Source: a phage. From it: DNA of 64,000 nucleotides. The notes beneath the pieces are model-generated. The model was given only the letters and a program-made list of their open reading frames with translations. It was not told the DNA's origin and did not search any database. Below, piece by piece: positions 43,348-55,656 of this stretch. Numbering within the stretch: position 1 is the first letter of the stretch; each line of letters starts with the position of its first letter. The translations under genes and the position numbers were made by a program. The DNA is taken from the NCBI GenBank assembly GCA_014685065.1, contig GCA_014685065.1_4092.2, one strand, 5' to 3'.

Positions 43348-43361
43348 GTTTAATAAAGTAC

Positions 43362-43420: not shown

Positions 43421-43440
43421 TATATAAGAGGATTAAAAAA

Positions 43441-43680
43441 ATGGCTAAATCAAAAATGTTCTTAGGTCACAAAAACAAAACTCAATGGAATGTAAGCCTT
43501 TGGATTAATAACGACGAATCATTATACCGGTTGGCCCAGGACTTTATTGCCGCTAACACTAATCGTAATGATGCGGCCCGTCATATGATGCTATTTTTAG
43601 AACAGACTGGACAAGATAAAACACCGGACGGCTTTAAGTATAGCACTACTGCGATCCGTGCGGCGATGGTTGGAATGTAA
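43441..43680 (+). CDS. hypothetical protein
   Basis: ATG 43441 after GAGGA; track start upstream lies in the hairpin. Confidence 0.55.
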   Translation: MAKSKMFLGHKNKTQWNVSLWINNDESLYRLAQDFIAANTNRNDAARHMMLFLEQTGQDKTPDGFKYSTTAIRAAMVGM

Positions 43681-43762
43681 GAGAATAGATTAAAAGTACT
43701 ATTGCACGGTGATAGTACTTTATAATAGATTTCTTTTATACAACAACGATAGGGGTAACAGC

Positions 43763-44029
43763 ATGAATATTATATACTTTGCAACGCGTGAACTTGCTCG
43801 GATTGCCGCACGCCAGGACGGGGCGACGTTTAAAGATATGGGCGTACAATCTGAACGTGGTAAACGTTGGGCCGTAGTAAAGCAAAGTACAGCCCGATCA
43901 ATTCAGTACTGGCTATCTGCTTTAAAGCGTCCTGATAGTGTATCGCGTCGCGTGGTAGAAATAAAGCACGACCGCAAGGGCAACCGCGTTACTGTGTACA
44001 GTACTAAAAAGATTGCAGTACTTGAATAA
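43763..44029 (+). CDS. hypothetical protein, paralog of 55734 gene
   Basis: FATRELARIAARQDGATFKDMG ... HDRKGNRVTVYS shared with 55734..56129. Confidence 0.55.
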   Translation: MNIIYFATRELARIAARQDGATFKDMGVQSERGKRWAVVKQSTARSIQYWLSALKRPDSVSRRVVEIKHDRKGNRVTVYSTKKIAVLE

Positions 44030-44151
44030 AAGTACTTGACAGTTATCCGGCTTAGTGAGATAATACTTACAAGCCGGACACAAGGCGATAGCCCATAGGG
44101 TGCGGGAGTGTATCTATAGGAAAGTACTAAAAACTATTTTCAAAAAAGTAC

Positions 44152-44179
44152 TTGCAAACTATGTTTAAAGGCGTATAAT
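44152..44179 (+). promoter_or_regulatory. promoter TTGCAA ... TATAAT, upstream of structured element
   Basis: agtacttgcaaactatgtttaaaggcgtataatg. Confidence 0.55.
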
Positions 44180-44180
44180 G

Positions 44181-44262
44181 TTTTACATCAGGACGGGGAA
44201 TGAAATAAGTAACTCCCTGTTAAGTAGTCCAGGAGTAAGACTTACGAAAAACTCCCCTGATA
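44181..44262 (+). ncRNA. structured RNA element, copy A (nested hairpins) between two promoters
   Basis: about 93 percent identical to 54513-54592; stem ACGGGGA/TCCCTGT has G-U where copy B has G-C. Confidence 0.35.
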
Positions 44263-44269
44263 AAATAGT

Positions 44270-44297
44270 TTGACAAAGATTTATAAAAGCGTATAAT
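44270..44297 (+). promoter_or_regulatory. promoter TTGACA-16-TATAAT
   Basis: tttgacaaagatttataaaagcgtataat. Confidence 0.55.
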
Positions 44298-44329
44298 ACT
44301 TACATCAACTAATGAATGAGGGTTACAAA

Positions 44330-44941
44330 ATGAAAACTATCACTACTACTACTTTTGTTATGGCTTTTTCTGAACTGAACGCAGAACAACAAACGGCGGC
44401 TATCGAACTGGTTCGGGATCGGGAACGTGCAAGTGAGGATAATTTCTTTGCTGAGTCAGTACTGGAATACTATAAAGAAACAGTACTGCCAGAATACGGC
44501 ATAGATGAAGCTGAATTGCAATACAGTGGTTTTTGGTCGCAAGGTGACGGTGCATCAATCAGTACTGACCACGTTGACGCTGAGAAGTTTTTACGCAAGG
44601 TTAAGGCGTTAACTAAGTATCGCACTATCCGTCACCTGTTGAACGAAGATGATTTAGAAATGAGTGTAGAACGTTCCCAATCGCGTTATGCACACGAAAA
44701 CACGGTAGGCGGTTGCGTTGATACTCGCTACACTGATTTAACTGTAAAACAGGCTGCATTAGCTGAGGATCTGGAAAACTTACTGACTGATACTATCCGA
44801 GAATTATCTTGTAAGCTGTACCGTGATTTAGAAAATGCTTATGAAGACCAGTTTACTACTGAAAACATTGTAGCACTGATTGAGGGTAACGAATATCAAT
44901 TTAATGTTATCGATGGTGTAGTAGAATCTATCGCATATTAA
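44330..44941 (+). CDS. hypothetical protein
   Basis: ATG 44330 after GAGGG. Confidence 0.55.
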   Translation: MKTITTTTFVMAFSELNAEQQTAAIELVRDRERASEDNFFAESVLEYYKETVLPEYGIDEAELQYSGFWSQGDGASISTDHVDAEKFLRKVKALTKYRTIRHLLNEDDLEMSVERSQSRYAHENTVGGCVDTRYTDLTVKQAALAEDLENLLTDTIRELSCKLYRDLENAYEDQFTTENIVALIEGNEYQFNVIDGVVESIAY

Positions 44942-44999
44942 TTCAGTACTGAATCACTGGCGGGGAATGGTTCCCGCCTATATCCCAGGAGTAAGAGAA

Positions 45000-45236
45000 A
45001 TGATCGAACAAATCAAAACTACAACGCCAAACGTAACGGGTACAGTATCACACTTCATTGGTGACGATTCGCGGGGCGTTCCTTATTGTGCAGTACATGT
45101 AAACCAAAATGGCGACTACTGGCTAACGGTTTACGGTTCTTATTCTTTCGGGCGTAGTGCACACCAAAAGATCCTGGATAAAGTACAGCCAACGGGTAAA
45201 AATATCACCGCTGAGATGTTTTATAAAAAGCACTAA
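45000..45236 (+). CDS. hypothetical protein
   Basis: ATG 45000 after AGGAG; preceded by hairpin GGCGGGGAATGGTTCCCGCC. Confidence 0.5.
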   Translation: MIEQIKTTTPNVTGTVSHFIGDDSRGVPYCAVHVNQNGDYWLTVYGSYSFGRSAHQKILDKVQPTGKNITAEMFYKKH

Positions 45237-45243
45237 AAAGTAC

Positions 45244-45302
45244 TTGCAAAGTAATTAGATTAACGTATAATACTTTATATCGAGAGCGGGAATAGTTCCC
45301 GC
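45244..45302 (+). promoter_or_regulatory. PeSL-like module
   Basis: TTGCAA 45244-45249, TATAAT 45266-45271, hairpin GCGGGAATAGTTCCCGC 45286-45302. Confidence 0.65.
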
Positions 45303-45321
45303 CTTTAATGAGGATTATCTA

Positions 45322-45606
45322 ATGAGCAAAGTAATTAATAGTAAAGTACTAACTAAAACTTTATCTATAACTGAGTGCACCGATGGTTTTTGGCTGTACG
45401 ATGAAACGCGTGGCATGAATTTAGCTATGCAGGAGAAAACTGCTGATGCGGCATATCTTAAAGCACTGGAATACTACCAGAAGCGTTTAAAGGAAGTAGA
45501 AAACGATTATAATAACCTGAAAGCGAAAGTAGATCATTTTGTCGGTCAATTCGTTGACGATGACGAGGACGGGCACTACTGCGACCGTTGCGGATCTTAC
45601 AATTGA
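45322..45606 (+). CDS. hypothetical protein
   Basis: RBS GAGGA; 94 aa. Confidence 0.55.
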   Translation: MSKVINSKVLTKTLSITECTDGFWLYDETRGMNLAMQEKTADAAYLKALEYYQKRLKEVENDYNNLKAKVDHFVGQFVDDDEDGHYCDRCGSYN

Positions 45607-45623
45607 GTACTGAGGATTATCTA

Positions 45624-45827
45624 ATGAGTGATTTAATTGAACGTATCAAAGAGCTTGAAGAAAAAGAATTGCAGTTGATCGGGTTACGGAATAAAGTATT
45701 CCATGATTTAGGTGGCTTCATTAATGCCTGGGATAGTGGCGATCCTGATGCGTTACCTGCTAACCGCCAGGCGATGATCAATGATGTGCGTGGTGTCTTT
45801 GATTATGTTTTAAAGCAATTAAATTAA
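45624..45827 (+). CDS. hypothetical protein
   Basis: ATG 45624 after GAGGA; leader duplicated from upstream gene. Confidence 0.5.
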   Translation: MSDLIERIKELEEKELQLIGLRNKVFHDLGGFINAWDSGDPDALPANRQAMINDVRGVFDYVLKQLN

Positions 45828-45834
45828 AAAAGTA

Positions 45835-45895
45835 CTTGCAATTAGTTTTTAGTACTGTATAATAGTTTACATCAAGGGGGGAAATGGTTCTCCCC
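45835..45895 (+). promoter_or_regulatory. PeSL-like module
   Basis: TTGCAA 45835-45840, TGTATAAT, hairpin GGGGGGAAATGGTTCTCCCC. Confidence 0.65.
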
Positions 45896-45914
45896 ACTAA
45901 TAAGGAGTTTTACA

Positions 45915-46136
45915 ATGGCTAATATCACTACTCTTTCCCAGCTTGAAGCACTGGTTAAATCTATGCGGGCACATGTTGACAGTATCGGCGTAGAAGATCC
46001 GGCTGTATGTTTTTGTGACGAAATAAATGATGATACGCTCGTCATTGCAGAAGTACAAGACGTTTCTAACTATTCATCGCGTTACACTTGCGGAGTATCA
46101 AAGAAAGGTGATTTCTGTTTATATCTTACTAAGTAA
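45915..46136 (+). CDS. hypothetical protein
   Basis: RBS AAGGAG. Confidence 0.55.
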   Translation: MANITTLSQLEALVKSMRAHVDSIGVEDPAVCFCDEINDDTLVIAEVQDVSNYSSRYTCGVSKKGDFCLYLTK

Positions 46137-46304
46137 TACAGAGGGGATCAATTGATCCCCTTTATATTTTTTGTACTGAATCATTTAATAGACGGATCTA
46201 TGCACCCTGTGGGTTAGTGACTATCTCGTCTTTATGTAAGTATTATGCCAGTACTGGATGCAGTTGTCAAGACTTTTTTTTCAAATACTTTTATATCAAA
46301 GTAC

Positions 46305-46360
46305 TTGATAATAGTTTTTAAATGCGTATAATGTTTTACATCTAATCGGGAATACTCCCT
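46305..46360 (+). promoter_or_regulatory. PeSL-like module (TTGATA ... TATAAT, weak hairpin)
   Basis: agtacttgataatagtttttaaatgcgtataatg. Confidence 0.5.
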
Positions 46361-46382
46361 AGTACTAACAAAGGATATACAA

Positions 46383-46682
46383 ATGAAAACTGCAATCATC
46401 GCCCTGGCTTTATCTGTTTCCTCTTTCGCTGTTAACGCTTCCGTTGATGTACCGAAAGAAAAATTCATTCAGTGCACTGTTGCAATGACTAACGAGGAAA
46501 CGGCTGAGATCGTTACCAAATCCCTGGAACTGGCCCCTGCAATGTTTGCTAATGGCCCGTACCATGAAGAAGATGATCAGGGTAGCACGACCATCTATTA
46601 CGATGCAAAAAGTAAACGCGGTTCTGTCACTGTAATGGATACAGAGAAAGTTACATTCACTGGCGTAATTAATTGTTTATAA
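46383..46682 (+). CDS. secreted hypothetical protein
   Basis: signal peptide MKTAIIALALSVSSFAVNA. Confidence 0.55.
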   Translation: MKTAIIALALSVSSFAVNASVDVPKEKFIQCTVAMTNEETAEIVTKSLELAPAMFANGPYHEEDDQGSTTIYYDAKSKRGSVTVMDTEKVTFTGVINCL

Positions 46683-46695
46683 TATAGTACTGAAT

Positions 46696-46728
46696 CACTA
46701 GCCCACTATAAGCAGTGGGCTTTTTTGT
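46696..46728 (+). terminator. intrinsic terminator
   Basis: AGCCCACT-ataagc-AGTGGGCT + T6. Confidence 0.7.
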
Positions 46729-46780
46729 TTTTGTAGTATTGTAGTACTGGTATACTTTGAAAATAGTTTTAAAAAAGTAG

Positions 46781-46808
46781 TTGACATTACCAGGGAAAAG
46801 CGTAGAAT
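46781..46808 (+). promoter_or_regulatory. promoter TTGACA ... TAGAAT
   Basis: agttgacattaccagggaaaagcgtagaatg. Confidence 0.5.
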
Positions 46809-46922
46809 GTATTACATCAAGACGGGGAACATTAAGTAGACCGCCAGTAAGTCGAATGAAAAACTGGACACGTCAATAAAACTTTGATAAACTAACTTAA
46901 ACTTTAATTGAGGATTTATAAA

Positions 46923-47405
46923 ATGGCTAATGTAAAATCATTTCTGAAAGCACTGATTTCTAACGATACTGTTATTGCTGCTGAATTGCTGGCTGACCTG
47001 GATAATGATACCATGAAAGCAGTACGCAACAATTTTAACATTGCTTACAGTGAAGCGAAAGAACTACAAGCCAAAAAGGTAGCAGAACTGGAAGAACAGA
47101 AAAAAGCCCGTGAAGCAGAACTGCAAGCAACAATAGAAAGTATTCAGGCGGCGGTGTCTGGTTTAGATCTGGAAGTGGTTATTGAAATGGCACATAAAGC
47201 CCTGGCGGTTAAGTACGGTGAAGATAAGCCGGAATCTAAGCCTAAAAAATGGATTCAAGAACGTGTTACGGTTGTCCTTGATAACGGGGAAGAACATTTG
47301 ATTCCTGTACGCGGTAACTGCATTGCGGTAGTACTAGATGCAATCAAAGAAAGCGGTATGACTCGCGAGGAATGGATCGAAGCTCACCGCAAAGTTGAAG
47401 CATAA
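46923..47405 (+). CDS. hypothetical protein with coiled-coil-like acidic/basic stretch
   Basis: ATG 46923 after GAGGA. Confidence 0.55.
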   Translation: MANVKSFLKALISNDTVIAAELLADLDNDTMKAVRNNFNIAYSEAKELQAKKVAELEEQKKAREAELQATIESIQAAVSGLDLEVVIEMAHKALAVKYGEDKPESKPKKWIQERVTVVLDNGEEHLIPVRGNCIAVVLDAIKESGMTREEWIEAHRKVEA

Positions 47406-47424
47406 CAATTAAAGTACTGAATCA

Positions 47425-47452
47425 CTAGCCCACTTATACAGTGGGCTTTTTT
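47425..47452 (+). terminator. intrinsic terminator
   Basis: AGCCCACT-tatac-AGTGGGCT + T6. Confidence 0.7.
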
Positions 47453-47606
47453 GTGTCTATAGTATTCCATGCCGTCAGCACCTCATAGAATCGATTCTAA
47501 CGCATTAAACTGATTATCTGATGCATCGCCCTAGCTGGTGGAGTTAAGGCCGTTAGAATGCGATTGAGAGTGTTAAAAGTATTTTACAAAAAGTAATAAA
47601 AAGTAC

Positions 47607-47634
47607 TTGCACGATTCAGAGATTAGCGTATAAT
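47607..47634 (+). promoter_or_regulatory. promoter TTGCAC ... TATAAT
   Basis: agtacttgcacgattcagagattagcgtataatg. Confidence 0.5.
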
Positions 47635-47679
47635 GTTTTACATCAAGGCGAAACACCTTAACTAACTGAGGATATAAAG

Positions 47680-47832
47680 ATGAATACTTATGAACTGGAT
47701 TGTTTCACTATGCAAGTAATGTTAGTATGCAGTAAAAAAGAATGGTCATCAAAGGAATTTAAAGCAGTTATTGCATGTTCAAAAAAAGGTAAGTCTATTA
47801 TTGAAACGGCAGCTATCGTAGATAGTCTTTAA
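47680..47832 (+). CDS. small hypothetical protein (50 aa)
   Basis: hand-called: RBS GAGGA, ATG 47680, stop 47830. Confidence 0.35.
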   Translation: MNTYELDCFTMQVMLVCSKKEWSSKEFKAVIACSKKGKSIIETAAIVDSL

Positions 47833-47840
47833 AAAATAGT

Positions 47841-47868
47841 TTGACAATAGTTTTAAGTACTGACATAA
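47841..47868 (+). promoter_or_regulatory. promoter TTGACA ... CATAAT
   Basis: tttgacaatagttttaagtactgacataat. Confidence 0.5.
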
Positions 47869-47902
47869 TACATACATCAACTACTGAATAGGAATCAAAA
47901 CA

Positions 47903-48130
47903 ATGGCTATCGTAATCACTCGCGTATCTGGTACTACTGGCAATTCTTCTACTGTTGCTGTAATTACTAATAAGAAAGGTGCGGAATTACATTTTGCAAT
48001 GAATACCTGGGCGGTGAATGAGTTCGGTCAGTGGGCTAGTGTAGAATACATTGAAACCTATCAAGTGCCAACCATTAGCTTAACGGATCTCGGCGTAGAT
48101 CGTATCTTATGCCTGGATGAATTAAACTAA
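47903..48130 (+). CDS. hypothetical protein
   Basis: RBS AGGAA. Confidence 0.5.
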   Translation: MAIVITRVSGTTGNSSTVAVITNKKGAELHFAMNTWAVNEFGQWASVEYIETYQVPTISLTDLGVDRILCLDELN

Positions 48131-48137
48131 AAAGTAC

Positions 48138-48197
48138 TTGCAAAGTAAATCGGATAAAGTATAATACATTACATCAAGGGGAGAAATGATTCTCCCC
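48138..48197 (+). promoter_or_regulatory. PeSL-like module
   Basis: TTGCAA 48138-48143, TATAAT 48160-48165, hairpin GGGGAGAAATGATTCTCCCC 48178-48197. Confidence 0.65.
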
Positions 48198-48215
48198 ACT
48201 AAGAGGAAACTAAAA

Positions 48216-48359
48216 ATGAAAACTTGTCAATGTGGTAAAAAATCTATCACTGGTTTGAAACGGGGCGTTGCTCTTTGTCAGTATCACTATAACGCTCAAG
48301 TATGGGGTAAAGAGTGGGCCGACCAGGTGGAAGCAATAAAGAAAGCAAAAAGTAAGTAA
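48216..48359 (+). CDS. small Cys-containing protein (47 aa), possible zinc ribbon
   Basis: hand-called: RBS AGAGGA, ATG 48216; CQCG ... C..H pattern. Confidence 0.35.
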   Translation: MKTCQCGKKSITGLKRGVALCQYHYNAQVWGKEWADQVEAIKKAKSK

Positions 48360-48443
48360 AATTATTATCACAGTACTATTGACATAGATTGATAGTACTG
48401 GCATAATAGATTTTATCAAGACAACTAAGAGGAAACAAAAATG
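48349..48443 (+). repeat. about 95-bp direct repeat, copy 1 (gene end + promoter + leader)
   Basis: near-identical to 48649-48737, including AGTACTATTGACATAG(A/T)TTGATAGTACTGGCATAAT. Confidence 0.6.
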
Positions 48444-48653
48444 GCTATCATTACAAAAATCAAAGTAAACAATTCACTGGTTAAACTGGAACAAGTGAAA
48501 GCGGGTTATAAAGTATCATGGTGCGGAATGTATCGGATGTTCGCAGATATTGACGATGCAATCAAATATTATACTGATACGGTTGCTAACTTTGTTCGTG
48601 CTGATGTAGTGATGGCAGTTGCACAACATAAAGCATCAAAGCAAAGTAAGTAA
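48441..48653 (+). CDS. hypothetical protein
   Basis: RBS AGAGGAAA. Confidence 0.55.
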   Translation: MAIITKIKVNNSLVKLEQVKAGYKVSWCGMYRMFADIDDAIKYYTDTVANFVRADVVMAVAQHKASKQSK

Positions 48654-48737
48654 AATTATTATCACAGTACTATTGACATAGTTTGATAGTACTGGCATAA
48701 TAGATTTTATCAAGACAACTAAGAGGAAATTAAAATG
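48649..48737 (+). repeat. about 95-bp direct repeat, copy 2
   Basis: see copy 1. Confidence 0.6.
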
Positions 48738-49079
48738 GCTAACATCAACACTATCTCAGCACAAAATATCAACCTGTCTTCTGTTGAAGTTGTACATATT
48801 GCCGCTCGGCGTTGGTTCCAGGCTTCATATGGTAACACTTATTTCTCTTTAAGTGTAGACGTAGAAATTGATGGTAATTTTATTGAAGTAGTAAACGTGC
48901 CGTTCCAATATGGATACGGGGATCACTTTGACACTGTAGCAATGGAAGAATTTAGCAAGGTTATTAATATGGAAGATAAAGAGTTTTTACGCGGTTCTTA
49001 TCTTTCCCGTTTTTGCCGTGACAATAATATCACTGTTTACAGTTCGGTAACTGATGTTAAACGCAAAAAAGATCTTTAA
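48735..49079 (+). CDS. hypothetical protein, paralog of 55311 gene
   Basis: shares GNTY(F/H)S ... YGYG ... VKRKKD(L/M) with 55311..55634. Confidence 0.55.
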   Translation: MANINTISAQNINLSSVEVVHIAARRWFQASYGNTYFSLSVDVEIDGNFIEVVNVPFQYGYGDHFDTVAMEEFSKVINMEDKEFLRGSYLSRFCRDNNITVYSSVTDVKRKKDL

Positions 49080-49159
49080 TTAGCTTTACTTTATGCAGAT
49101 ACTTTGATATAGTGTCTGCATAGGGGAAAGAAATTAAATCAAATTAAGAGGATAGTAAA

Positions 49160-49429
49160 ATGAAAAATATCAGTACTTTAATCGATGCAGGTACTCATGT
49201 TCGTCGGTCAATGGTTGCAACCAGTACTACAAAACAAGTAGCAAGCGGTTATCTTGTATTTGTACACGAAGGAAAGCTATTGGAACGTTCAATCAATTTT
49301 GATGTTAAAAACAATTGCCGTTTTATTATTTTTAAGCGTGAACAATATAAAATTGATTTGCCAGCAAAGCCCATTAGCGGGGCGTACAACGTGCAATCAT
49401 TGTTTGAGCGTCAACCATACACCTATTAA
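49160..49429 (+). CDS. hypothetical protein
   Basis: RBS AGAGGA. Confidence 0.5.
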   Translation: MKNISTLIDAGTHVRRSMVATSTTKQVASGYLVFVHEGKLLERSINFDVKNNCRFIIFKREQYKIDLPAKPISGAYNVQSLFERQPYTY

Positions 49430-49480
49430 TCAAAACATCGTTAGCGGTCGATTTAGGCCGCTTATATTGGGGATTATACC

Positions 49481-49651
49481 ATGAACGTTAATCAAGTACT
49501 GAATGAAGTTGAAAGCATCATTAAACCAATGAAACGTATTGATGCTGTTCCTACACCGGAAGAATGCCGCCTTTATGAGCGTTACAGTGTGGAACAAGCC
49601 CAGGAAATGGCCCGTATCCGTCCGGTTGCCAGTACTGATAAGGCGGCGTAA
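49481..49651 (+). CDS. small hypothetical protein (56 aa)
   Basis: hand-called: RBS GGGGA, ATG 49481; replaces N-terminal part of track ORF 49539. Confidence 0.4.
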   Translation: MNVNQVLNEVESIIKPMKRIDAVPTPEECRLYERYSVEQAQEMARIRPVASTDKAA

Positions 49652-49652
49652 T

Positions 49653-49859
49653 ATGCTTACTGTACAGGATAAGATCGACATCTTAAAGGTTAATATGTAT
49701 GTGATTGATGCAGATCCTGAAAAAGTATTTGCATACGATGATTCTAATCGTAGTCCTTTTTATTGTAGTCATGTAGTTGGATACGTGCCGTTAGCGTATG
49801 TTATCGAAAGAGTGGTTGATTCAGCTTATAAACATTACTTAGAAAGTACTTGCAATTAG
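49653..49859 (+). CDS. hypothetical protein
   Basis: ATG 49653 right after previous stop; 3' end overlaps next promoter. Confidence 0.45.
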   Translation: MLTVQDKIDILKVNMYVIDADPEKVFAYDDSNRSPFYCSHVVGYVPLAYVIERVVDSAYKHYLESTCN

Positions 49860-49910
49860 TTTTCAGTACTGTATAATTGTTTACATAGAGGGGGGGAATG
49901 GTTCTCCCCG
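49850..49910 (+). promoter_or_regulatory. PeSL-like module
   Basis: TTGCAA 49850-49855, TGTATAAT 49870-49877, hairpin GGGGGGGAATGGTTCTCCCC. Confidence 0.65.
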
Positions 49911-49927
49911 ATACTAGGAGAAACAAA

Positions 49928-50080
49928 ATGAAACAATATAACGCTCGGTTTGATGTTACTATCGGTAACGGGAAAGGTCAGTACTCTTTCAGTACTCGTA
50001 AAAGTTATACAGAAAACTTCCTGCGTAATTGTGCACTGACCGCCGCACAAATTAAACATTACTTTCAGGCTAAAAAATGA
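49928..50080 (+). CDS. small hypothetical protein (50 aa)
   Basis: ATG 49928 after AGGAGA. Confidence 0.5.
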   Translation: MKQYNARFDVTIGNGKGQYSFSTRKSYTENFLRNCALTAAQIKHYFQAKK

Positions 50081-50166
50081 AATCATTAGCTTACTATAGT
50101 TCGGCCCTGGTCGGTGCAGTACTGGCGGCATTGTTAGTAACCTATCTATTCTTTATGGTGATTTAA
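50077..50166 (+). CDS. 29-aa hydrophobic peptide
   Basis: ATGA overlap; single TM-like segment. Confidence 0.3.
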   Translation: MKSLAYYSSALVGAVLAALLVTYLFFMVI

Positions 50167-50304
50167 ATGAATCCAAATAATATTATCTATCCTAACGCTA
50201 AAACGAAAGCAGATAAGGTAAACGCAAAAAAAGCGAAAGTAAAGCAGTACATCAAGCAAGGCATGACACGCAAAGCGGCATTGCTTAAAGCTAAAAATAA
50301 ATGA
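50167..50304 (+). CDS. 45-aa Lys-rich peptide
   Basis: ATG directly after previous stop; followed by terminator module. Confidence 0.3.
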   Translation: MNPNNIIYPNAKTKADKVNAKKAKVKQYIKQGMTRKAALLKAKNK

Positions 50305-50310
50305 AAAAAG

Positions 50311-50342
50311 TGGTTGACTTCGGTCAGCCATTTTGCTATTAT
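50311..50342 (+). terminator. bifunctional terminator/promoter module
   Basis: TGGTTGACTTCGGTCAGCCA + TTTTGCTATTAT. Confidence 0.65.
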
Positions 50343-50366
50343 ATATTCATTGAGAGATAGCTCACT

Positions 50367-50392
50367 AGCCCACAGGGTGCAGGAATGTATCT
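50367..50392 (+). repeat. conserved element AGCCCACAGGGTGCAGGAATGTATCT
   Basis: same element near 44093, 52048, 54401, 57711, 59965 and inverted near 46197. Confidence 0.5.
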
Positions 50393-50446
50393 ATTGTATA
50401 ATGATTGAGTACTGAAAACTATTTTAAAGTATTTGATAAAAAGTAC

Positions 50447-50506
50447 TTGCAAACTATCTCAATAAGCGTATAATGTTTTACATCGCAAGGGGAAACGGTT
50501 TCCCCT
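50447..50506 (+). promoter_or_regulatory. PeSL-like module
   Basis: TTGCAA, TATAAT 50469-50474, hairpin AGGGGAAACGGTTTCCCCT. Confidence 0.65.
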
Positions 50507-50525
50507 GGTAATAAGGAAACGAATC

Positions 50526-50867
50526 ATGACTATTGCAATTGCTCAATCTAACTTTGAAAACGAAATCATCGCTCAGGCACTGCGTTTAAATGATGGTCGG
50601 GCCGAAATCAATTACGGTTTCAATAGTGGTGGATGTGAAAAATATCAGTACTTTGTAACGGCTGATGGCTGTGTCCTGGGTATCAATACAGTTATTGTAA
50701 ACATTCAGAAAATTAATTTCAATGATCCAGACGATAGCCAGTTTTACATCACGGGCGTAGACGTGAACTACGAAGATGATTCCTTAACTGATGATTACAC
50801 TGGCGAGAAGTTAGAAAGTGCATACGGTGAGGATGATTATCAGTCCGGTCCAGAAGATTTTGAATAA
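50526..50867 (+). CDS. acidic hypothetical protein
   Basis: RBS AAGGAAA. Confidence 0.55.
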   Translation: MTIAIAQSNFENEIIAQALRLNDGRAEINYGFNSGGCEKYQYFVTADGCVLGINTVIVNIQKINFNDPDDSQFYITGVDVNYEDDSLTDDYTGEKLESAYGEDDYQSGPEDFE

Positions 50868-50881
50868 TATTAAAAAATAGT

Positions 50882-50940
50882 TTGACAATAGTTTCCAGTA
50901 CTGTATAATTAATTACATCAAGGGGAGAATAGTTCTCCCC
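50882..50940 (+). promoter_or_regulatory. PeSL-like module (near-identical to 51154-51212)
   Basis: TTGACA 50882-50887, TATAAT 50904-50909, hairpin GGGGAGAATAGTTCTCCCC 50922-50940. Confidence 0.7.
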
Positions 50941-50962
50941 ACTAACAGAGAGAGAAAACAAA

Positions 50963-51145
50963 ATGGCTGAATTAATCGCTCGGAATACAATTGCAGGCGT
51001 TGAAGATGTAACATTATCATATGATTCAGATAAACAAGTTTACGTCATTCGTTATGGTCTGATTGGTGTTAACGTTGATTCAATTGACGAAGCCTTTGAA
51101 AAATACTTTGAATTTATCAACCTGGCTTATGATGATTATCGTTAA
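50963..51145 (+). CDS. hypothetical protein
   Basis: RBS AGAGAGA; flanked by duplicate PeSL modules. Confidence 0.55.
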   Translation: MAELIARNTIAGVEDVTLSYDSDKQVYVIRYGLIGVNVDSIDEAFEKYFEFINLAYDDYR

Positions 51146-51153
51146 AAAATAGT

Positions 51154-51212
51154 TTGACAATAGTTTTAAGTACTGTATAATTAATTACATCAAGGGGAGA
51201 ATAGTTCTCCCC
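51154..51212 (+). promoter_or_regulatory. PeSL-like module (duplicate of 50882-50940)
   Basis: TTGACA 51154-51159, TATAAT 51176-51181, hairpin 51194-51212. Confidence 0.7.
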
Positions 51213-51229
51213 ACTAAGAGGAAAACAAA

Positions 51230-51448
51230 ATGGCTAATATCCGCACTGTACTGAAAAATGCAAAACAAGTTTTATTTTCTGACGATGAATATTTTAATCG
51301 CAATATCAAAGGCGTTCGGAACATTGAGGATGTAAAGGAATTATTTGGAATCAAAGGTAACGTATATCGTAAAGGATTGCACGGTAATCATTTTGAATAT
51401 AAGTTAGCTGATAGTGATTATAACTTTACACTGACTATCATTAACTAA
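51230..51448 (+). CDS. hypothetical protein
   Basis: RBS AGAGGAAA. Confidence 0.55.
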   Translation: MANIRTVLKNAKQVLFSDDEYFNRNIKGVRNIEDVKELFGIKGNVYRKGLHGNHFEYKLADSDYNFTLTIIN

Positions 51449-51540
51449 AAATATTATCACAGTACTATTGACAACTGCCGATAGTACTGGCATAATAACT
51501 TTTATCAACAGTAGTTAACTTAACCTAAGAGAGAAACATC

Positions 51541-51684
51541 ATGACAGCATTAGATTCATTCATCGACGCAGTACTGGCAAAAACTGGCGAGGATCTGACC
51601 GCAGAACAATACGCGATGATCGAGCAATGCCAGCAAAACGGTAAATCGGTGAAAGATACTGTTAAGATTATCCGCAAGATGTAA
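51541..51684 (+). CDS. small hypothetical protein (47 aa)
   Basis: hand-called: RBS AGAGAGA, ATG 51541; followed by terminator-like hairpin. Confidence 0.35.
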   Translation: MTALDSFIDAVLAKTGEDLTAEQYAMIEQCQQNGKSVKDTVKIIRKM

Positions 51685-51789
51685 GAATATAGCCCACTGG
51701 TTAACGCTGGTGGGCTTTAATCATTTACCCTATACAATGCCAGTACTAAACCGTTTATCTCGTTAGAATGCGTTACAGGACGTTTAACA

Positions 51790-51987
51790 ATGATTAGCAT
51801 GAAATCAGTACAAAAACAAATTGATACATTATCAAAAATTAAACGTAAACAGTACTCCTTAGAATATACAATCAATGGTAACTATCATCTAATGAAAGAA
51901 AATAATTTTATAGTCATTGATGAATCATTGCAAATCATTAGTATAGTACTGAAAGCATTAATCAATGACAGAAAAAAGTTAAAATAA
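51790..51987 (+). CDS. hypothetical protein
   Basis: RBS AGGA. Confidence 0.45.
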   Translation: MISMKSVQKQIDTLSKIKRKQYSLEYTINGNYHLMKENNFIVIDESLQIISIVLKALINDRKKLK

Positions 51988-51991
51988 TCTA

Positions 51992-52020
51992 TTGACAATA
52001 TTATCCAGTACTGGCATAAT
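51992..52020 (+). promoter_or_regulatory. promoter TTGACA ... GCATAAT
   Basis: attgacaatattatccagtactggcataat. Confidence 0.5.
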
Positions 52021-52079
52021 ACTTACATCAAGACGAGAACGTCACTAACCCATAGGGTGCACAAATGTAACTGTATAAT

Positions 52080-52120
52080 ATTGATCAAAAAATGATCTGA
52101 TCAATACTTGATCAATTTGC
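52080..52120 (+). promoter_or_regulatory. cluster of three TTGATCA half-palindromes, candidate operator
   Basis: ttgatcaaaaaatgatctgatcaatacttgatcaatttg. Confidence 0.4.
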
Positions 52121-52318
52121 GTAAAGTAGTATAATTCTATGCAGTTGGTTAGACGAAAGGTTATGATTAGTAGTGGAAGTGTATAAAAATTTTCATGGTG
52201 TGGTGATCCGCACATATGGGGATGAATATGTCGTGTCGTATGGATTGGAAAAAGTAAGAACAAGTAATATACTTGTCGCGTTACAGTACTATAGTAATTT
52301 TATAATGAGGTTAAAATA

Positions 52319-52576
52319 ATGGCTGTAGGATTCACGAAAGATGGGGCCGAGCAAGACGAGATTAACGCAGTGATTCAGGCCGCTGTTAACCACGCTAGAA
52401 CGCAAATTAACGCACAAATAGAATCACTGATACATTGCCTCGACTGCGGCGATAAAATCCCTGAGAATCGCCGCCAGGCAGTTAAGGGGTGTAAGTACTG
52501 CATCACTTGCCAGGCTGATCATGATAGCATATTCAAACGCAATCCCCGTAATTGTTGGCATAGATCTATGAGATAA
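52319..52576 (+). CDS. TraR/DksA-family C4 zinc-finger protein
   Basis: CLDCGDKIPENRRQAVKGCKYCITCQ matches the CxxC-(17)-CxxC TraR/DksA pattern. Confidence 0.65.
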   Translation: MAVGFTKDGAEQDEINAVIQAAVNHARTQINAQIESLIHCLDCGDKIPENRRQAVKGCKYCITCQADHDSIFKRNPRNCWHRSMR

Positions 52577-52581
52577 AAAGT

Positions 52582-52610
52582 ATTGACAGTGCTGTTAGTT
52601 AGTGTATAAT
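52582..52610 (+). promoter_or_regulatory. promoter TTGACA-17-TATAAT
   Basis: TTGACA 52582-52587, TATAAT 52605-52610. Confidence 0.55.
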
Positions 52611-52639
52611 ATTTTATATCTTAACTGAGGATTGAAATC

Positions 52640-52996
52640 ATGGGTATACAACATATCACGCGTACTACAGACAATGGTGAGATCACTGGCTATCAAGTAC
52701 AAGGCAAAGTAGCACAATTGCAGTACTGGTTTGTTAAACGTGGCATTGTTGCACCAGATCTTGATTATAATCGTGTAGCGTTTATTGATTCTCTTTATGT
52801 TGATCCCGATAATCGCGGTAACGGTGAAGGTACTGAATTAATGAATGCCTTTATTGATGCCGCCGATGATTCAGATTGTATCATCTTAGAATGCGATACG
52901 GGAGAAGATAACGCATTTAATCTTAAAGAATGGTATGAAAGTTTTGGTTTTGAAGTGCTGATGGACTGCGAATATCCTATAATGATTTTATCCTAG
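52640..52996 (+). CDS. putative small GNAT-like acetyltransferase
   Basis: motif-A-like DNRGNGEGTELM, then WYESFGF. Confidence 0.4.
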   Translation: MGIQHITRTTDNGEITGYQVQGKVAQLQYWFVKRGIVAPDLDYNRVAFIDSLYVDPDNRGNGEGTELMNAFIDAADDSDCIILECDTGEDNAFNLKEWYESFGFEVLMDCEYPIMILS

Positions 52997-52999
52997 TAC

Positions 53000-53058
53000 T
53001 TGCAATTAGTTTTAAGTACTGTATAATAGTTTACATGAAGGGGAGAATAGTTCTCCCC
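53000..53058 (+). promoter_or_regulatory. PeSL-like module
   Basis: TTGCAA 53000-53005, TATAAT 53022-53027, hairpin 53040-53058. Confidence 0.65.
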
Positions 53059-53075
53059 ACTACAAGGAAAGACAA

Positions 53076-53264
53076 ATGCAAAACTTATCAAGTATTTTAG
53101 TACAAGATGATTTCGGTAATCCTGGAAGTGCTATCATTGTTCGGGGTAATAAAGCAACATTTGTTATTGCTGGTGGACCTGTACAGCGTAGCATTAAAAA
53201 CAATGCAGTTACAATCAATAATGTTCGCTATCGCTTGGATAAAGAATTGATTCATAAACTGTAA
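53076..53264 (+). CDS. hypothetical protein
   Basis: RBS AAGGAAA. Confidence 0.5.
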   Translation: MQNLSSILVQDDFGNPGSAIIVRGNKATFVIAGGPVQRSIKNNAVTINNVRYRLDKELIHKL

Positions 53265-53291
53265 TATTAATTTAATAGAGGATAAAAATAA

Positions 53292-53615
53292 ATGTATATT
53301 CATACTACTATCACAAAAGAAGTTCGTTGTCAATTCGAAAGTATCCCTGGTGTATGTTTCATTACAGGCACTTTCTCACCTGGTGACCGTGATAATCCAG
53401 TACTGTTACAGTTACGCCATCCATTATGGGATAAAGCATTTGATCTGCCGTTGAATGAATTCGCAACCACTGCTGATAAGTACATTAAAAATATTCGCGA
53501 GAATGATTGCCTATTCATTAATGCTTTTAGTGATGCCGCGTTAAGTGAGATCCATGCTGTATTGGTTGCAATCATGGAATCAATGGAGAAAACTATATTC
53601 AAACAAGGTGAATAA
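53292..53615 (+). CDS. hypothetical protein
   Basis: RBS AGAGGA. Confidence 0.55.
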   Translation: MYIHTTITKEVRCQFESIPGVCFITGTFSPGDRDNPVLLQLRHPLWDKAFDLPLNEFATTADKYIKNIRENDCLFINAFSDAALSEIHAVLVAIMESMEKTIFKQGE

Positions 53616-53621
53616 AAACTA

Positions 53622-53680
53622 TTGACAATGTAATCTAGTACTGTATAATAGTTTACATGAAGGGGAGAAATGATTCTCCC
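53622..53680 (+). promoter_or_regulatory. PeSL-like module
   Basis: TTGACA 53622-53627, TATAAT 53645-53650, hairpin GGGGAGAAATGATTCTCCCC. Confidence 0.65.
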
Positions 53681-53698
53681 CACTAAGAGGAAAGAAAC

Positions 53699-53911
53699 AT
53701 GCAAGGTCAACTAATCGTTCGTAAATGGTCTGATACTAACGAAAAACCGTGGGATGTTCAATATATCGGACCGGACGGTGTTTCACGTTATCAACCTGGC
53801 GTAACGCATAGTACTGAGCAATATGCCGCCGCTCACCGTGAACGCCTGTTAGAATCTATGAAACAGGGATTCTGTGAAAAATTCATTCAAGATCATTGGC
53901 TGAAAGATTAA
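53699..53911 (+). CDS. hypothetical protein
   Basis: RBS AGAGGAAA. Confidence 0.55.
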   Translation: MQGQLIVRKWSDTNEKPWDVQYIGPDGVSRYQPGVTHSTEQYAAAHRERLLESMKQGFCEKFIQDHWLKD

Positions 53912-53928
53912 TAGAAGGAGTACAGCTT

Positions 53929-54021
53929 ATGCAAATGAATCCGATGATTGTTGTGTTAGCTGTACTTATGGTCATTCATGCCATCGTAGAAGTACTAACA
54001 CAATCAGGAGTAATACAATGA
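53929..54021 (+). CDS. 30-aa hydrophobic peptide
   Basis: hand-called: RBS AGGAG, ATG 53929. Confidence 0.3.
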   Translation: MQMNPMIVVLAVLMVIHAIVEVLTQSGVIQ

Positions 54022-54188
54022 TCCAGGTGGAATTATCAGTACTGAAAGATCTGTTTTATCGGTTAGGCACTACTGGCGAATACCCTAAAGGGGATACTGC
54101 TAAACTATACATTGCATTGGATGTATGGCAACGTAATGAACTGGCTAACGCCTGGCGTAAAGGTAAATCAGAGGGGATTGCAGCATGA
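54018..54188 (+). CDS. small hypothetical protein (56 aa)
   Basis: hand-called: ATGA overlap. Confidence 0.35.
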   Translation: MIQVELSVLKDLFYRLGTTGEYPKGDTAKLYIALDVWQRNELANAWRKGKSEGIAA

Positions 54189-54334
54189 AAGAATTCTTAT
54201 TCGAAGTAGTGTTCCAGGGCGTAGGAAGTAACCAACTGATTCGATCAAGTGGTTACAATGTTAACCAGGCATGGAATAACATTAAACAAATGTACCCGAA
54301 CGCTATCACATATCGCAACCCAAAACAAGTTTAA
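54185..54334 (+). CDS. small hypothetical protein (49 aa)
   Basis: hand-called: ATGA overlap; followed by terminator module. Confidence 0.35.
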   Translation: MKEFLFEVVFQGVGSNQLIRSSGYNVNQAWNNIKQMYPNAITYRNPKQV

Positions 54335-54348
54335 AAAGAATTAAAAAA

Positions 54349-54381
54349 GGGATTGACTCCGGTCAGTCCCTTTGCTATTAT
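54349..54381 (+). terminator. bifunctional terminator/promoter module (GGGATTGACTCCGGTCAGTCCC variant)
   Basis: hairpin 54349-54370 + TTTGCTATTAT. Confidence 0.65.
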
Positions 54382-54481
54382 ATACGCATAGAAACAAATC
54401 AGCCCACAGGGTGCATAAATGTATCTATTATATGCTGGTGGCTAGTACTATCAAGTACTGAAAACTATTTTTAAAAAGTAC

Positions 54482-54509
54482 TTGCAAAGTATCACGATAA
54501 GCGTATAAT
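54482..54509 (+). promoter_or_regulatory. promoter TTGCAA-16-TATAAT upstream of structured element copy B
   Basis: TTGCAA 54482-54487, TATAAT 54504-54509. Confidence 0.55.
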
Positions 54510-54512
54510 GTT

Positions 54513-54592
54513 TTACATCAGGACGGGGAACGAAACAAGTAACTCCCCGTTAAGTAGTCCAGGAGTAAGACATACGAAAACCTCCCCTGATA
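54513..54592 (+). ncRNA. structured RNA element, copy B
   Basis: perfect ACGGGGA/TCCCCGT stem plus second GGAG/CTCC hairpin; see copy A at 44181. Confidence 0.35.
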
Positions 54593-54599
54593 AAATAGT

Positions 54600-54628
54600 T
54601 TGACAATACCAAGTAAACGAGTATAATA
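54600..54628 (+). promoter_or_regulatory. promoter TTGACA-17-TATAAT
   Basis: TTGACA 54600-54605, TATAAT 54623-54628. Confidence 0.55.
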
Positions 54629-54657
54629 CTTACATCAACCACAAAGAGGAATACAAA

Positions 54658-54858
54658 ATGAAACATTTTACTTTCGGTGTAGTAGGCTTTACAGTATCCA
54701 GCGGCGTTTATAAATCAGAACGCGGTGCTAAAAATGCAGCAAGTCGGGCGTATGGTTCACAGCGTGACTTACAGGTCGGTTATATTAGTAACATTAATAA
54801 CATGTTTATTCCTGTTTCACAGCGTAAAGCGGGTAACATGAAATGGGAAACAATTTGA
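54658..54858 (+). CDS. hypothetical protein
   Basis: RBS AGAGGAA. Confidence 0.5.
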   Translation: MKHFTFGVVGFTVSSGVYKSERGAKNAASRAYGSQRDLQVGYISNINNMFIPVSQRKAGNMKWETI

Positions 54859-54867
54859 TAAAATAGT

Positions 54868-54926
54868 TTGACAATAGTTTTTAGTACTGTATAATAGTTT
54901 ACATCAAGTGGGGAATAGTTCCCCAC
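54868..54926 (+). promoter_or_regulatory. PeSL-like module
   Basis: TTGACA 54868-54873, TATAAT 54890-54895, hairpin GTGGGGAATAGTTCCCCAC. Confidence 0.65.
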
Positions 54927-54947
54927 CTAACAAAGAGAGAAATTAAA

Positions 54948-55223
54948 ATGCGGATTCTACTGACAGCTAACGAAATCGAGCAAGTACTGACTACTAACCT
55001 GGAAGACTGGAAACGTGATGCAGATATCCAGGCGGTGCAATGGCTCAATGATAAGTTAACGCCGGATGATTTAAGTAAGATTGTAGATCCACAATTCTAT
55101 GAAGATATTCACGACACGGCTTTAAGCGTCGAGGATGTACTTGATAAGCACTACATTGATATTGATTTGCAGGTTTACGGTCGTAAAAACTTTATCACTA
55201 TTCACGACATTTATAATAATTAA
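54948..55223 (+). CDS. acidic hypothetical protein
   Basis: RBS AGAGAGA. Confidence 0.55.
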   Translation: MRILLTANEIEQVLTTNLEDWKRDADIQAVQWLNDKLTPDDLSKIVDPQFYEDIHDTALSVEDVLDKHYIDIDLQVYGRKNFITIHDIYNN

Positions 55224-55226
55224 GTA

Positions 55227-55286
55227 TTGACAAAGTATCTTAGTACTGTATAATAGTTTACATCAAGGCAGGGGAATGGTTCCCCT
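55227..55286 (+). promoter_or_regulatory. PeSL-like module
   Basis: TTGACA 55227-55232, TATAAT 55249-55254, hairpin AGGGGAATGGTTCCCCT. Confidence 0.65.
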
Positions 55287-55310
55287 CCTAACTAAAAGAG
55301 AGAAATTAAA

Positions 55311-55634
55311 ATGACTATGATCCTTACCCAGAAAGTAGAAATGAAAATTGTAACTTCCTTTGACATTAAAGTTAATCGGTGGACTGATAGCCACGGCAAT
55401 ACTTACCACTCATGCTACGTGTCTGCATTGATTGGTGACCGCTGGGAAGACCTGGGACATGAAACCTTTACTTACGGTTACGGTACACAAGGCGAATACA
55501 CGGGCTTGGAGATCATTAAAGAAACTGTAATAGGTTTCAACCCGAAAGAGAAAGTACTACACAGAATTGAGGATGAGATCAACAAAGAAATTACAGTTCG
55601 TTACTACGATGTAAAACGTAAGAAAGACATGTAA
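55311..55634 (+). CDS. hypothetical protein, paralog of 48735 gene
   Basis: GNTYHS ... YGYG ... VKRKKDM. Confidence 0.55.
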   Translation: MTMILTQKVEMKIVTSFDIKVNRWTDSHGNTYHSCYVSALIGDRWEDLGHETFTYGYGTQGEYTGLEIIKETVIGFNPKEKVLHRIEDEINKEITVRYYDVKRKKDM

Positions 55635-55656
55635 TAGAATCCATTTAAAGTACTAT

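Follow-up and report, generated by a model that had tools for sequence, protein, structure and literature searches.

The 64,000-nucleotide (nt) stretch of phage DNA analysed here (contig GCA_014685065.1_4092.2, called the window throughout) belongs to a 121Q-like jumbo coliphage, Asteriusvirus, and contains three copies, designated A, B and C, of one element, an RNA domain with a compact, conserved fold that heads the immediate-early transcripts synthesized by the sigma70 RNA polymerase of the host. Sequence comparison identifies the three copies as homologues within a large, widely conserved and apparently undescribed family of folded RNAs that includes the spacer between promoters A1 and A2 of bacteriophage T7. 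That the element is a functional structured RNA of this early-leader family is very probable. The best explanation overall is that the domain would act in cis through a host component, a reading to which we assign a rough probability of 0.4. The region carrying the copies is 97% identical to Escherichia phage 121Q (KM507819, near 138–140 kb) and 81–89% identical to most other Asteriusvirus jumbo phages.

The relationship with T7 was assessed using a covariance model (R1) trained on 34 distinct T7-like sequences only and run over the entire window as well as the jumbo-phage loci. Within the 64-kb window the model returns exactly three matches, at copy C (46806–46881; 28.4 bits, E = 1e-5), copy B (54525–54599; 22.7 bits, E = 5.7e-4) and copy A (44195–44269; 22.5 bits, E = 6.5e-4), with no other match at E ≤ 10. 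The core shared by the family is UAAGUAG, four nucleotides, and a hairpin with the loop (A)UAAGNCNNACGAAMAN, and all three copies match it when it is written as UAAGUAG-N4-stem-(A)UAAGNCNNA(C/U)GAA...-stem. The three copies are not attributable to chance, because this core pattern occurs three times in the window against 0.76 expected and a model built from T7-like sequences alone finds exactly those sites.

BLAST searches with the 77-nt element return two to four copies in each of ∼45 Asteriusvirus genomes, as well as single copies of 84–92% identity in phages of 137–147 kb. The three phages of the latter size class that were checked (EmilieFrey, outra and muut) belong to an unrelated group, Stephanstirmvirinae/Justusliebigvirus (phi92-like), and the EmilieFrey element likewise sits between two promoters. 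More distant members, found by pattern scans and further rounds of BLAST, are present in a 366-kb metagenomic jumbo phage (L028/L037), Salmonella phages Munch, 7t3, SE_PL and PHA46, Klebsiella phage fENko-Kae01, Erwinia jumbo phage Hallingskeid, Kayfunavirus such as GA2A, Enterobacter phage MII_002, and T7-like Pantoea phage LIMEzero, whose copy is recorded between two annotated host promoters and is also classed with window copy C as an ordinary 5' untranslated region (UTR) having no second promoter downstream. For the T7-like phages themselves an 87-mer, identical at 100% to T7 nt 534–620, has 485 matching records, and 53 further IMG/VR loci carry the T7-type element. In T7 the element occupies nt 536–593, within the first 600 bp of the genome and at +39 to +96 of the A1 transcript, and ends in the -35 hexamer of A2, which is also the 3' arm of its closing helix; in phiYeO3-12 the annotated A1 -10 and A2 -35 signals flank it.

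The hosts named in the homologue tables are almost all Enterobacterales, and unrelated phage families of the same hosts share the module at 85–97% identity, with the unit of promoter plus element nearly intact. Family copies always head an early transcription unit, ∼0–50 nt from its strong sigma70-type promoter, and all are in sense orientation directly after that promoter. The genes that follow are unrelated to one another, being phrog_5162 after copy A, phrog_7744 after copy B, a DUF7249 gene in EmilieFrey and gene 0.3 in T7, where ∼330 nt and an RNase III site intervene. A link to a common downstream gene was considered and rejected, since a single gene family follows only the C-type, Munch and Hallingskeid copies and not those of A, B, Justusliebigvirus or T7. 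In some Asteriusvirus and Munch-like records the region is inside direct terminal repeats. Between muut (L010, 6031–6160) and the phage G17 (L007, 14033–14160), the element, the downstream promoter and the first codons of the next gene are nearly identical, a resemblance that points to recent exchange of whole early modules between Justusliebigvirus and Asteriusvirus.

Several further candidates were set aside. Outside Asteriusvirus, the pattern matches in IMG/VR and metagenomes are mostly chance occurrences inside coding sequence (L003–L005, L011, L013–L016, L019, L020 and others), the useful ones being L017, L018, L021, L012 and L028/L037. A pattern scan of GTDB (one genome per bacterial species) gave 31 matches, among which re-scoring with R1 leaves one that is real (96 bits); it is apparently a T7-like contig binned into a metagenome-assembled genome, so that the scan provides no evidence for chromosomal or prophage copies. 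The element has no BLAST match in 5,426 E. coli genomes and thus there is no sign of host-sequence mimicry. A faint likeness, seen by eye, of the T7 A2–A3 spacer to the element was dismissed as a second copy, with R1 assigning it only 6.9 bits (E = 2.2).

Comparison of the homologues indicates a common architecture in which four helices are supported by covariation: the closing helix P1, the hairpin P3, a pseudoknot PK2, and a second pseudoknot found in the T7-like phages. The invariant core consists of P1, the single-stranded UAAGUAG, P3 with 4–5 bp and a loop of 16–17 nt having the consensus given above, and the 3-bp PK2, in which GXC of the junction pairs with GYC of the loop, leaving an A-rich strand as in classical H-type pseudoknots. 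Most of the unpaired nucleotides of this core are invariant across very distant phages. P3 is found as GGAG/CUCC (A and B), CCAG/CUGG (C, Munch and LIMEzero), CCUG/CAGG (T7, GA2A and Hallingskeid) and CUUG/CAAG (L058); all 25 distinct cores form each of its four central pairs (100%), three of which change on both sides, the changing pairs using CG/GC, CG/GC/UA and UA/AU/UG. The central pair of PK2, formed by the nucleotide after UAAGUAG (X) and the nucleotide after UAAG in the loop (Y), covaries as Watson-Crick partners. Among 26 distinct cores X:Y is A:U in 17, U:A in six, C:G in two and a C-A mismatch in one (16, 6, 2 and 1, respectively, in the 25 aligned cores), each pair state occurs in several unrelated lineages, and both states U:A (copies A and B) and A:U (copy C) are present in the window. 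X and Y are each flanked by invariant G and C, and PK2 as a whole is 98.7–100% paired.

The arms of P1 vary from lineage to lineage yet remain complementary: AUCAGG/CCUGAU, GACGGG/CACGUC, GCGGC/GUCGC, CGGC/GCCG, ACCGAA/UUCGGU, GUCAA/UUGAC, GUCGGU/ACCGAC and GAUUAG/CUAAUC, to which the T7-like phages add GUCAC/GUGAC, GUCAUC/GAUGAC, GUUAA/UUAAC and UCAAC/GUUGA. Changes on both sides are seen at five of the six P1 pairs in T7-like phages; within the A/B type P1 is invariant, and its support there comes from comparison between lineages. In the T7-like phages the 5' arm of P1 lies in the loop of a small hairpin, S1, generating the second, H-type pseudoknot, and S1 itself covaries at three of four pairs (CCGG/CCGG, CCAC/GUGG, CCAG/CUGG and CCUG/CAGG). 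In the T7-like alignment 91.6–93% of cells pair in the proposed structure, compared with 13–36% when the partners are slid by 1–3 columns, and none of 500 shuffles reaches the observed covariation score. The 5' side of the domain also differs by lineage: A, B and Munch have an extra hairpin, P2, which creates a three-way junction, and C, Hallingskeid and LIMEzero have nothing extra there. Minimum-energy folding yields the three-way junction for copy B (-20.4 kcal/mol, z = -2.4), EmilieFrey and L028. In the core helices of the T7-like phages, G-U pairs outnumber A-C mismatches by 9 to 2 on the promoter-sense strand, and because all copies also stand in sense orientation after a promoter, the folded molecule is taken to be the transcript and not duplex DNA or the opposite strand.

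The features of the three copies in the window are as follows; the promoters are consensus matches, not mapped start sites, and were scanned for A and C and identified by eye for B.

44036–44064, plus strand: promoter P0 upstream of copy A, TTGACA-17-GATAAT, 11 of 12 consensus positions in the promoter scan.
44152–44179, plus strand: promoter P1 driving element A, TTGCAA-16-TATAAT, from the promoter scan and repeat families D1–D3, the AAAAAGTACTTGCAA...TATAAT...TTACATCA cassette.
44187–44261, plus strand: element A, whole RNA domain, from folding, covariation and the match to the T7-derived model.
44270–44297, plus strand: second promoter directly 3' of element A, TTGACA-16-TATAAT, 12 of 12 positions in the promoter scan.
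44330–44941, plus strand: first gene after copy A, 203 amino acids, phrog_5162, no Pfam family, function unassigned.
46700–46721, plus strand: intrinsic terminator closing the preceding unit, just upstream of the copy C promoter, an 8-bp stem followed by TTTTTTGTTTT.
46781–46808, plus strand: promoter driving element C, TTGACA-16-TAGAAT, from the promoter scan.
46821–46874, plus strand: element C, minimal form without P2, from covariation and the match to the T7-derived model.
46923–47405, plus strand: gene after copy C, 160 amino acids, phrog_27871.
54482–54509, plus strand: promoter P1 driving element B, TTGCAA-16-TATAAT, read from the sequence by analogy with copy A, repeat families D2 and D3.
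54517–54591, plus strand: element B, whole RNA domain, from folding, covariation and the match to the T7-derived model.
54600–54627, plus strand: second promoter directly 3' of element B, TTGACA-16-TATAAT, read from the sequence, repeat family D16.
54658–54858, plus strand: first gene after copy B, 66 amino acids, phrog_7744, function unassigned.

Each copy begins no more than ∼10 nt from the predicted start of its strong sigma70-type promoter, and for element A the promoter consensus predicts a transcript start at A44185 or A44187. In A and B the 5' arm of helix P1 is at the extreme 5' end of the transcript and pairs with the segment just after P3, with the 28-nt P2 nested inside. In element A, AUCAGG (44187–44192) pairs with CCUGAU (44256–44261) to form P1; P2 (44193–44220) comprises ACGGGGA, a 14-nt loop and UCCCUGU with one G-U pair; the junction UAAGUAGUCCA spans 44221–44231; P3 joins GGAG (44232–44235) to CUCC (44252–44255) around the loop UAAGACUUACGAAAAA; and PK2 joins GUC (44227–44229) to GAC (44239–44241). 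The corresponding parts of element B are P1 (54517–54522 with 54586–54591), P2 (ACGGGGA/UCCCCGU, 54523–54550), UAAGUAG (54551–54557), P3 (GGAG 54562–54565 with CUCC 54582–54585) and PK2 (GUC 54557–54559 with GAC 54569–54571). Element C, which heads a transcription unit right behind a strong terminator and serves as 5' UTR for the gene that follows, no second promoter intervening, has P1 with five of six pairs formed (GACGGG 46821–46826 with CACGUC 46869–46874), UAAGUAG (46833–46839), P3 (CCAG 46844–46847 with CUGG 46864–46867) and PK2 (GAC 46839–46841 with GUC 46851–46853).

These assignments support and extend a sequence-only reading of the window, which had described a duplicated structured leader at 44181–44262 and 54513–54592. 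The duplication is real (5 differences in ∼82 nt, ∼94% identity) and is wider than was described, extending over 139 nt at 90% identity (44138–44276 and 54468–54606, repeat family D19); it is also more than a local repeat, belonging to the family that includes the T7 A1–A2 spacer. The placement between an upstream promoter and a second promoter plus gene holds for both copies, with TTGCAA-16-TATAAT before and TTGACA-16-TATAAT after the element, and both named stems, ACGGGGA/TCCCCGT and GGAG/CTCC, are present. A structure-preserving change from G-C in copy B to G-U in copy A had been emphasized; the change exists (copy A has TCCCTGT) but taken alone is weak evidence for structure. Stronger evidence was obtained once homologues had been collected, with compensatory changes in the four helices across several phage families upholding the proposed structured RNA leader. 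The related start noticed near 46811 proves to be a true third copy of the conserved core without the first hairpin. That first hairpin, ACGGGGA...TCCCCGT (P2), on which the earlier reading laid stress, is the least conserved in the family, the conserved part being the UAAGUAG junction with the second hairpin and its loop.

No match to a described RNA was found. Rfam 15 gives no match at gathering score in the window and, in eight loci (121Q, L028, LIMEzero, Hallingskeid, T7, GA2A, phiYeO3-12 and EmilieFrey), nothing that overlaps the element even when E values up to 10 are admitted, and an ARAGORN scan of the window for tRNA and tmRNA returned no genes. The element itself has no terminator hairpin with a T-run, and no intrinsic terminator is present between it and the next gene; an independent small RNA gene with both its own promoter and its own terminator is accordingly not what is seen, the former being present and the latter absent, although a discrete RNA might still be released by processing. 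A leader peptide was also rejected: the 31-amino-acid open reading frames at 44178 and 54508 have their start codons within the -10 hexamer, and indels between copies, both single-nucleotide and longer, break the frame. The triplet after AGGAG is ACG in A and B. A pistol or hammerhead ribozyme was discarded on the basis of a different helix order and the lack of an Rfam match. Full-text literature searches on T7 or phage RNA elements returned no description of the element, and a search on Asteriusvirus transcription returned nothing relevant. No named element was found for the ∼90 nt between T7 A1 and A2, a spacer that is unannotated, and the T7 element sequence string appears in the literature only where T7 A1 DNA serves as a tool.

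With regard to function, RNase III is known to cut the T7 leader at R0.3, releasing leader fragments, and a corresponding RNase III site is annotated in phiYeO3-12. Because the leader is removed at this site, the T7 element would be unable to act on translation or mRNA stability of gene 0.3. Given further that downstream genes are unrelated, that the domain travels with the promoter, and that T7 gene 0.3 is so distant and lies beyond the RNase III site, we infer a function that is generic for first transcripts in an Enterobacterales host and exerted by the RNA itself, as opposed to regulation of one gene. In the favored explanation the domain would fold co-transcriptionally just behind the host polymerase and, while nascent, would bind a host component, most likely the elongating RNA polymerase or Nus-type cofactors; it would then act in cis, in the manner of the put RNA of phage HK022, and early transcription units might thereby become resistant to pausing and termination. 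The lack of its own terminator is as expected of a cis-acting leader. The specifically polymerase-directed form of this mechanism, suggested by analogy, is doubtful and is put forward with low certainty.

Several observations weigh against this explanation. In most lineages a strong second promoter lies 10–40 nt downstream, so that many transcripts of the downstream gene would not contain the element, which is odd for a cis-acting antiterminator. No intrinsic terminator is known in T7 before TE, the T7 leader already carries a canonical boxA, no boxA-like sequence with ≤2 mismatches was found in the 42–61 kb region of the window, and the fold resembles neither put, which consists of two plain stem-loops, nor nut. 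The stability predicted from single sequences is only moderate (z = -1.1 to -3.9), and for copy A a structure other than the nested fold has the lowest predicted energy.

The presence of a dedicated strong promoter upstream and, in most lineages, another promoter directly downstream is more readily accommodated by the main rival explanation, in which promoter and domain constitute a self-contained gene for a trans-acting immediate-early noncoding RNA that titrates a host protein or RNA. Such an RNA might be released by processing, as by RNase III at R0.3 in T7, or be carried on the leader, and would be active ahead of all phage protein synthesis; possible targets include a defence nuclease or toxin that binds RNA, a protein of the ribosome, an RNA chaperone and a regulator. 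The unrelated downstream genes, the 85–97% identity of the module across unrelated phage families of the same, almost exclusively Enterobacterales hosts, the high conservation of unpaired nucleotides, such as specific binding surfaces typically show, and the established release of T7 leader fragments by cutting at R0.3, at a site annotated also in phiYeO3-12, are all in its favor. However, the tandem promoters could simply have arisen through insertion by recombination between promoter cassettes, the element has neither a terminator nor a defined 3' end, copy C and the LIMEzero copy are ordinary 5' UTRs without a second promoter, no host sequence resembles the element so as to hint at mimicry, and no candidate target has emerged; on this evidence we consider a trans-acting RNA unlikely. 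The remaining readings are less likely. The start of the domain only a few nucleotides from the transcript 5' end in jumbo phages, and the location of P2 where neighbouring cassettes have a generic 5' hairpin, might suggest an element governing mRNA fate, which either guards against 5'-end-dependent decay and RNase E scanning or boosts ribosome loading on the first gene. A simple roadblock, however, needs neither ∼30 invariant unpaired nucleotides nor a covarying tertiary pair, the T7-like domain starts near +39 in a leader that is cut off the mRNA at R0.3, and second promoters produce mRNAs that do not contain the element, all of which make this reading improbable.

Even less probable is a riboswitch-like aptamer, in which the pseudoknot would bind a small molecule or ion and couple early transcription or RNA fate to host physiology. 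The compact pseudoknotted fold with its mostly invariant unpaired core is compatible with this proposal, and the succession of stem, stem and A-rich loop recalls the small pseudoknot aptamers; nevertheless, no expression platform is recognizable downstream, either as a terminator or as a sequence sequestering the Shine-Dalgarno region, the downstream genes are unrelated, of unassigned function and without metabolic logic, and no Rfam riboswitch matches even at E ≤ 10. A role at the level of DNA, as an activating or protein-binding site for the downstream promoter, as a recombination hotspot, or as a decayed promoter-leader-Shine-Dalgarno cassette without an open reading frame, has the lowest probability of all and is very hard to sustain. 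It would account for the usual position of the element just upstream of a second promoter and for the coincidence of the P1 3' arm with the A2 -35 hexamer in T7, and would fit both the resemblance of CCAGGAGUAAGA in A and B to the Shine-Dalgarno regions of neighbouring cassettes (repeat family D10) and the surroundings built of shuffling cassettes like those of T4-type phages (PMC2839356). Neither duplex recognition nor decay, however, explains compensatory changes in four helices including two pseudoknots, and G-U pairs are tolerated on one strand only. Moreover, copy C and LIMEzero retain the element without a downstream promoter, the spacing to the downstream -35 hexamer varies, no open reading frame is conserved, and the indels between copies include 1-nt changes, which are not multiples of three. 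The covariation thus led to rejection of the decayed promoter-Shine-Dalgarno cassette, which CCAGGAGUAAGA had suggested, as the main explanation.

The element can be compared with several characterized systems. The closest is the T7/Studiervirinae A1–A2 spacer. It agrees with the window copies in the core (UAAGUAG, four nucleotides and P3, whose loop is (A)UAAGNCNNACGAAAAA), in the PK2 pair and in the closing helix, and its context is alike: a strong sigma70 early promoter immediately precedes it, and usually another promoter follows. In the T7-like phages, however, the 5' arm of P1 is in the S1 loop, the second pseudoknot is present and the domain starts near +39, whereas in window copies A and B that arm is at the transcript 5' end with the 28-nt P2 nested inside, and copy C has neither S1 nor P2. 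The T7-like leaders moreover carry a canonical boxA further downstream, in contrast to the window copies, which have none. HK022 put RNA is a cis-acting processive antiterminator that binds host RNA polymerase, acting on the beta-prime subunit, and comprises two adjacent stem-loops. The element resembles it as a promoter-proximal structured RNA of ∼70 nt heading early operons that are transcribed by the host polymerase, no phage protein would be needed, and whatever lies downstream would be affected; it differs in its pseudoknots and three-way junction, which put does not have, in showing no visible sequence similarity to put, and in being bypassed by a second promoter in most lineages. The boxB-boxA-boxC leaders of lambda nut sites and rrn operons are likewise leader RNA signals for host factors, and the T7-like leaders contain the canonical boxA (CGCTCTTTAACAA) and have tandem promoters as at rrn P1–P2, but the element is neither boxA nor boxB, and no boxA resembling GCTCTTTAACAA was found near the window copies. 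In the T7-like phage fHe-Yen3-01 a boxA is present without the element. The H-type pseudoknot aptamers of the preQ1-I and SAM-II type resemble the combination of PK2 and P3 in topology, with two short stems, a 10-nt A-rich strand and conserved unpaired positions, although the element differs in having no Rfam match, no expression platform and no association with metabolic genes.

A final comparison concerns the promoter-early stem-loop (PeSL) cassettes of T4-type phages, which are small composite terminator/promoter motifs subject to cassette shuffling (Arbiol et al., 2010, PMC2839356; Comeau et al., 2014, PMC4122927). The 42–61 kb region of the window is similar in that small early open reading frames each follow a conserved cassette of promoter and stem-loop, common to unrelated phages, and movement of the unit of promoter plus element by PeSL-like cassette shuffling would, by analogy, fit this arrangement. 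The element itself differs from PeSL in having no terminator, in having promoters on both sides, and in being a pseudoknotted RNA of ∼75 nt with covarying tertiary pairs that is conserved far beyond one phage group; it does not qualify as a PeSL member, and the neighbouring generic cassettes are a better fit.

Few viruses have been studied as thoroughly as T7, and transcription research uses its A1 promoter region as a standard tool. The A1–A2 segment nevertheless contains a covariation-supported double pseudoknot that is present in ∼500 T7-like genomes and is common to phi92-like phages and 350-kb jumbo phages, a breadth of conservation implying that selection strongly favours a function of the RNA during the first seconds of infection. 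A broader proposal, possible though less likely than not, is that the element represents a new class of host-directed, protein-independent immediate-early phage RNA. Such an RNA might modify host RNA polymerase, or it might inhibit, or serve as a decoy for, a defence or RNA-binding factor of the host; under this proposal it has moved horizontally, promoter included, through the T7-like, phi92-like and Rak2/121Q-like phages infecting Enterobacterales and has gone unnoticed in the T7 A1–A2 spacer for decades. Should its target indeed be the host polymerase, or else a defence or regulatory factor of the host, phages would possess a takeover tool of a new kind that requires no translation. The element would also be of practical relevance to users of T7 A1 or of early-region fragments and to the engineering of therapeutic phages.

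The surroundings of the three copies are themselves repetitive. Small plus-strand open reading frames run along 42.8–60.6 kb, each preceded by a stereotyped cassette (repeat families D1–D4, D9 and D10) consisting of AAAAAGTACTTGCAA or TTGACA, a spacer of 16–17 nt, TATAAT, 3–4 nt, TTACATCA, a 5' hairpin of the GGGGAGAAUAGUUCUCCCC type, a Shine-Dalgarno sequence and a start codon. P2 of the element occupies the position that this generic 5' hairpin has in all neighbouring cassettes (D1–D4 and D10). At least 13 copies of the early cassette lie within 42868–60547 (for example 43352–43438, 50872–50958 and 58078–58164), in an organization resembling the PeSL cassettes of T4-type phages, and the GAAUAG loop of the window cassettes recurs in the 5' hairpin of the T7 A1 transcript. 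Elsewhere, at 7343–20719, 50305, 54344, 57648 and 59909, families of G+C-rich hairpins with a -35 hexamer (GGGTTGACTTCGGTCAGCCC) are followed by a T-rich stretch and a -10 box; these look like composite terminator/promoter elements, and equivalent sites are annotated as terminators in the G17 record. Downstream of composite promoters there is a second conserved leader motif, AGCCCAYAGGGTGC...GTATCT, at 44094–44120, 54397–54430, 57700–57737 and 59960–59998, which may be another small structured RNA; its first two occurrences are just upstream of the promoters driving copies A and B.

The phrog_27871 gene that follows copy C has homologues directly behind the Munch and Hallingskeid elements (L040, 3687–4274, and L039, 1649–2275), and the C-terminus of its product shows a weak pairwise similarity to the DNA-binding domain of H-NS from E. 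coli (27% over 66 amino acids, E = 0.001), suggesting that it may be a phage-encoded H-NS-like protein. Nine copies of an 87–120 nt repeat, spaced by ∼1.2 kb, span 26614–37155 and appear to be the 5' ends and upstream regions of tandem paralogous minus-strand genes. On the minus strand at 6971–6982 the boxA core GCTCTTTAACAA is matched exactly, as nowhere else in the window; this site could mark Nus-dependent antitermination of leftward transcription.

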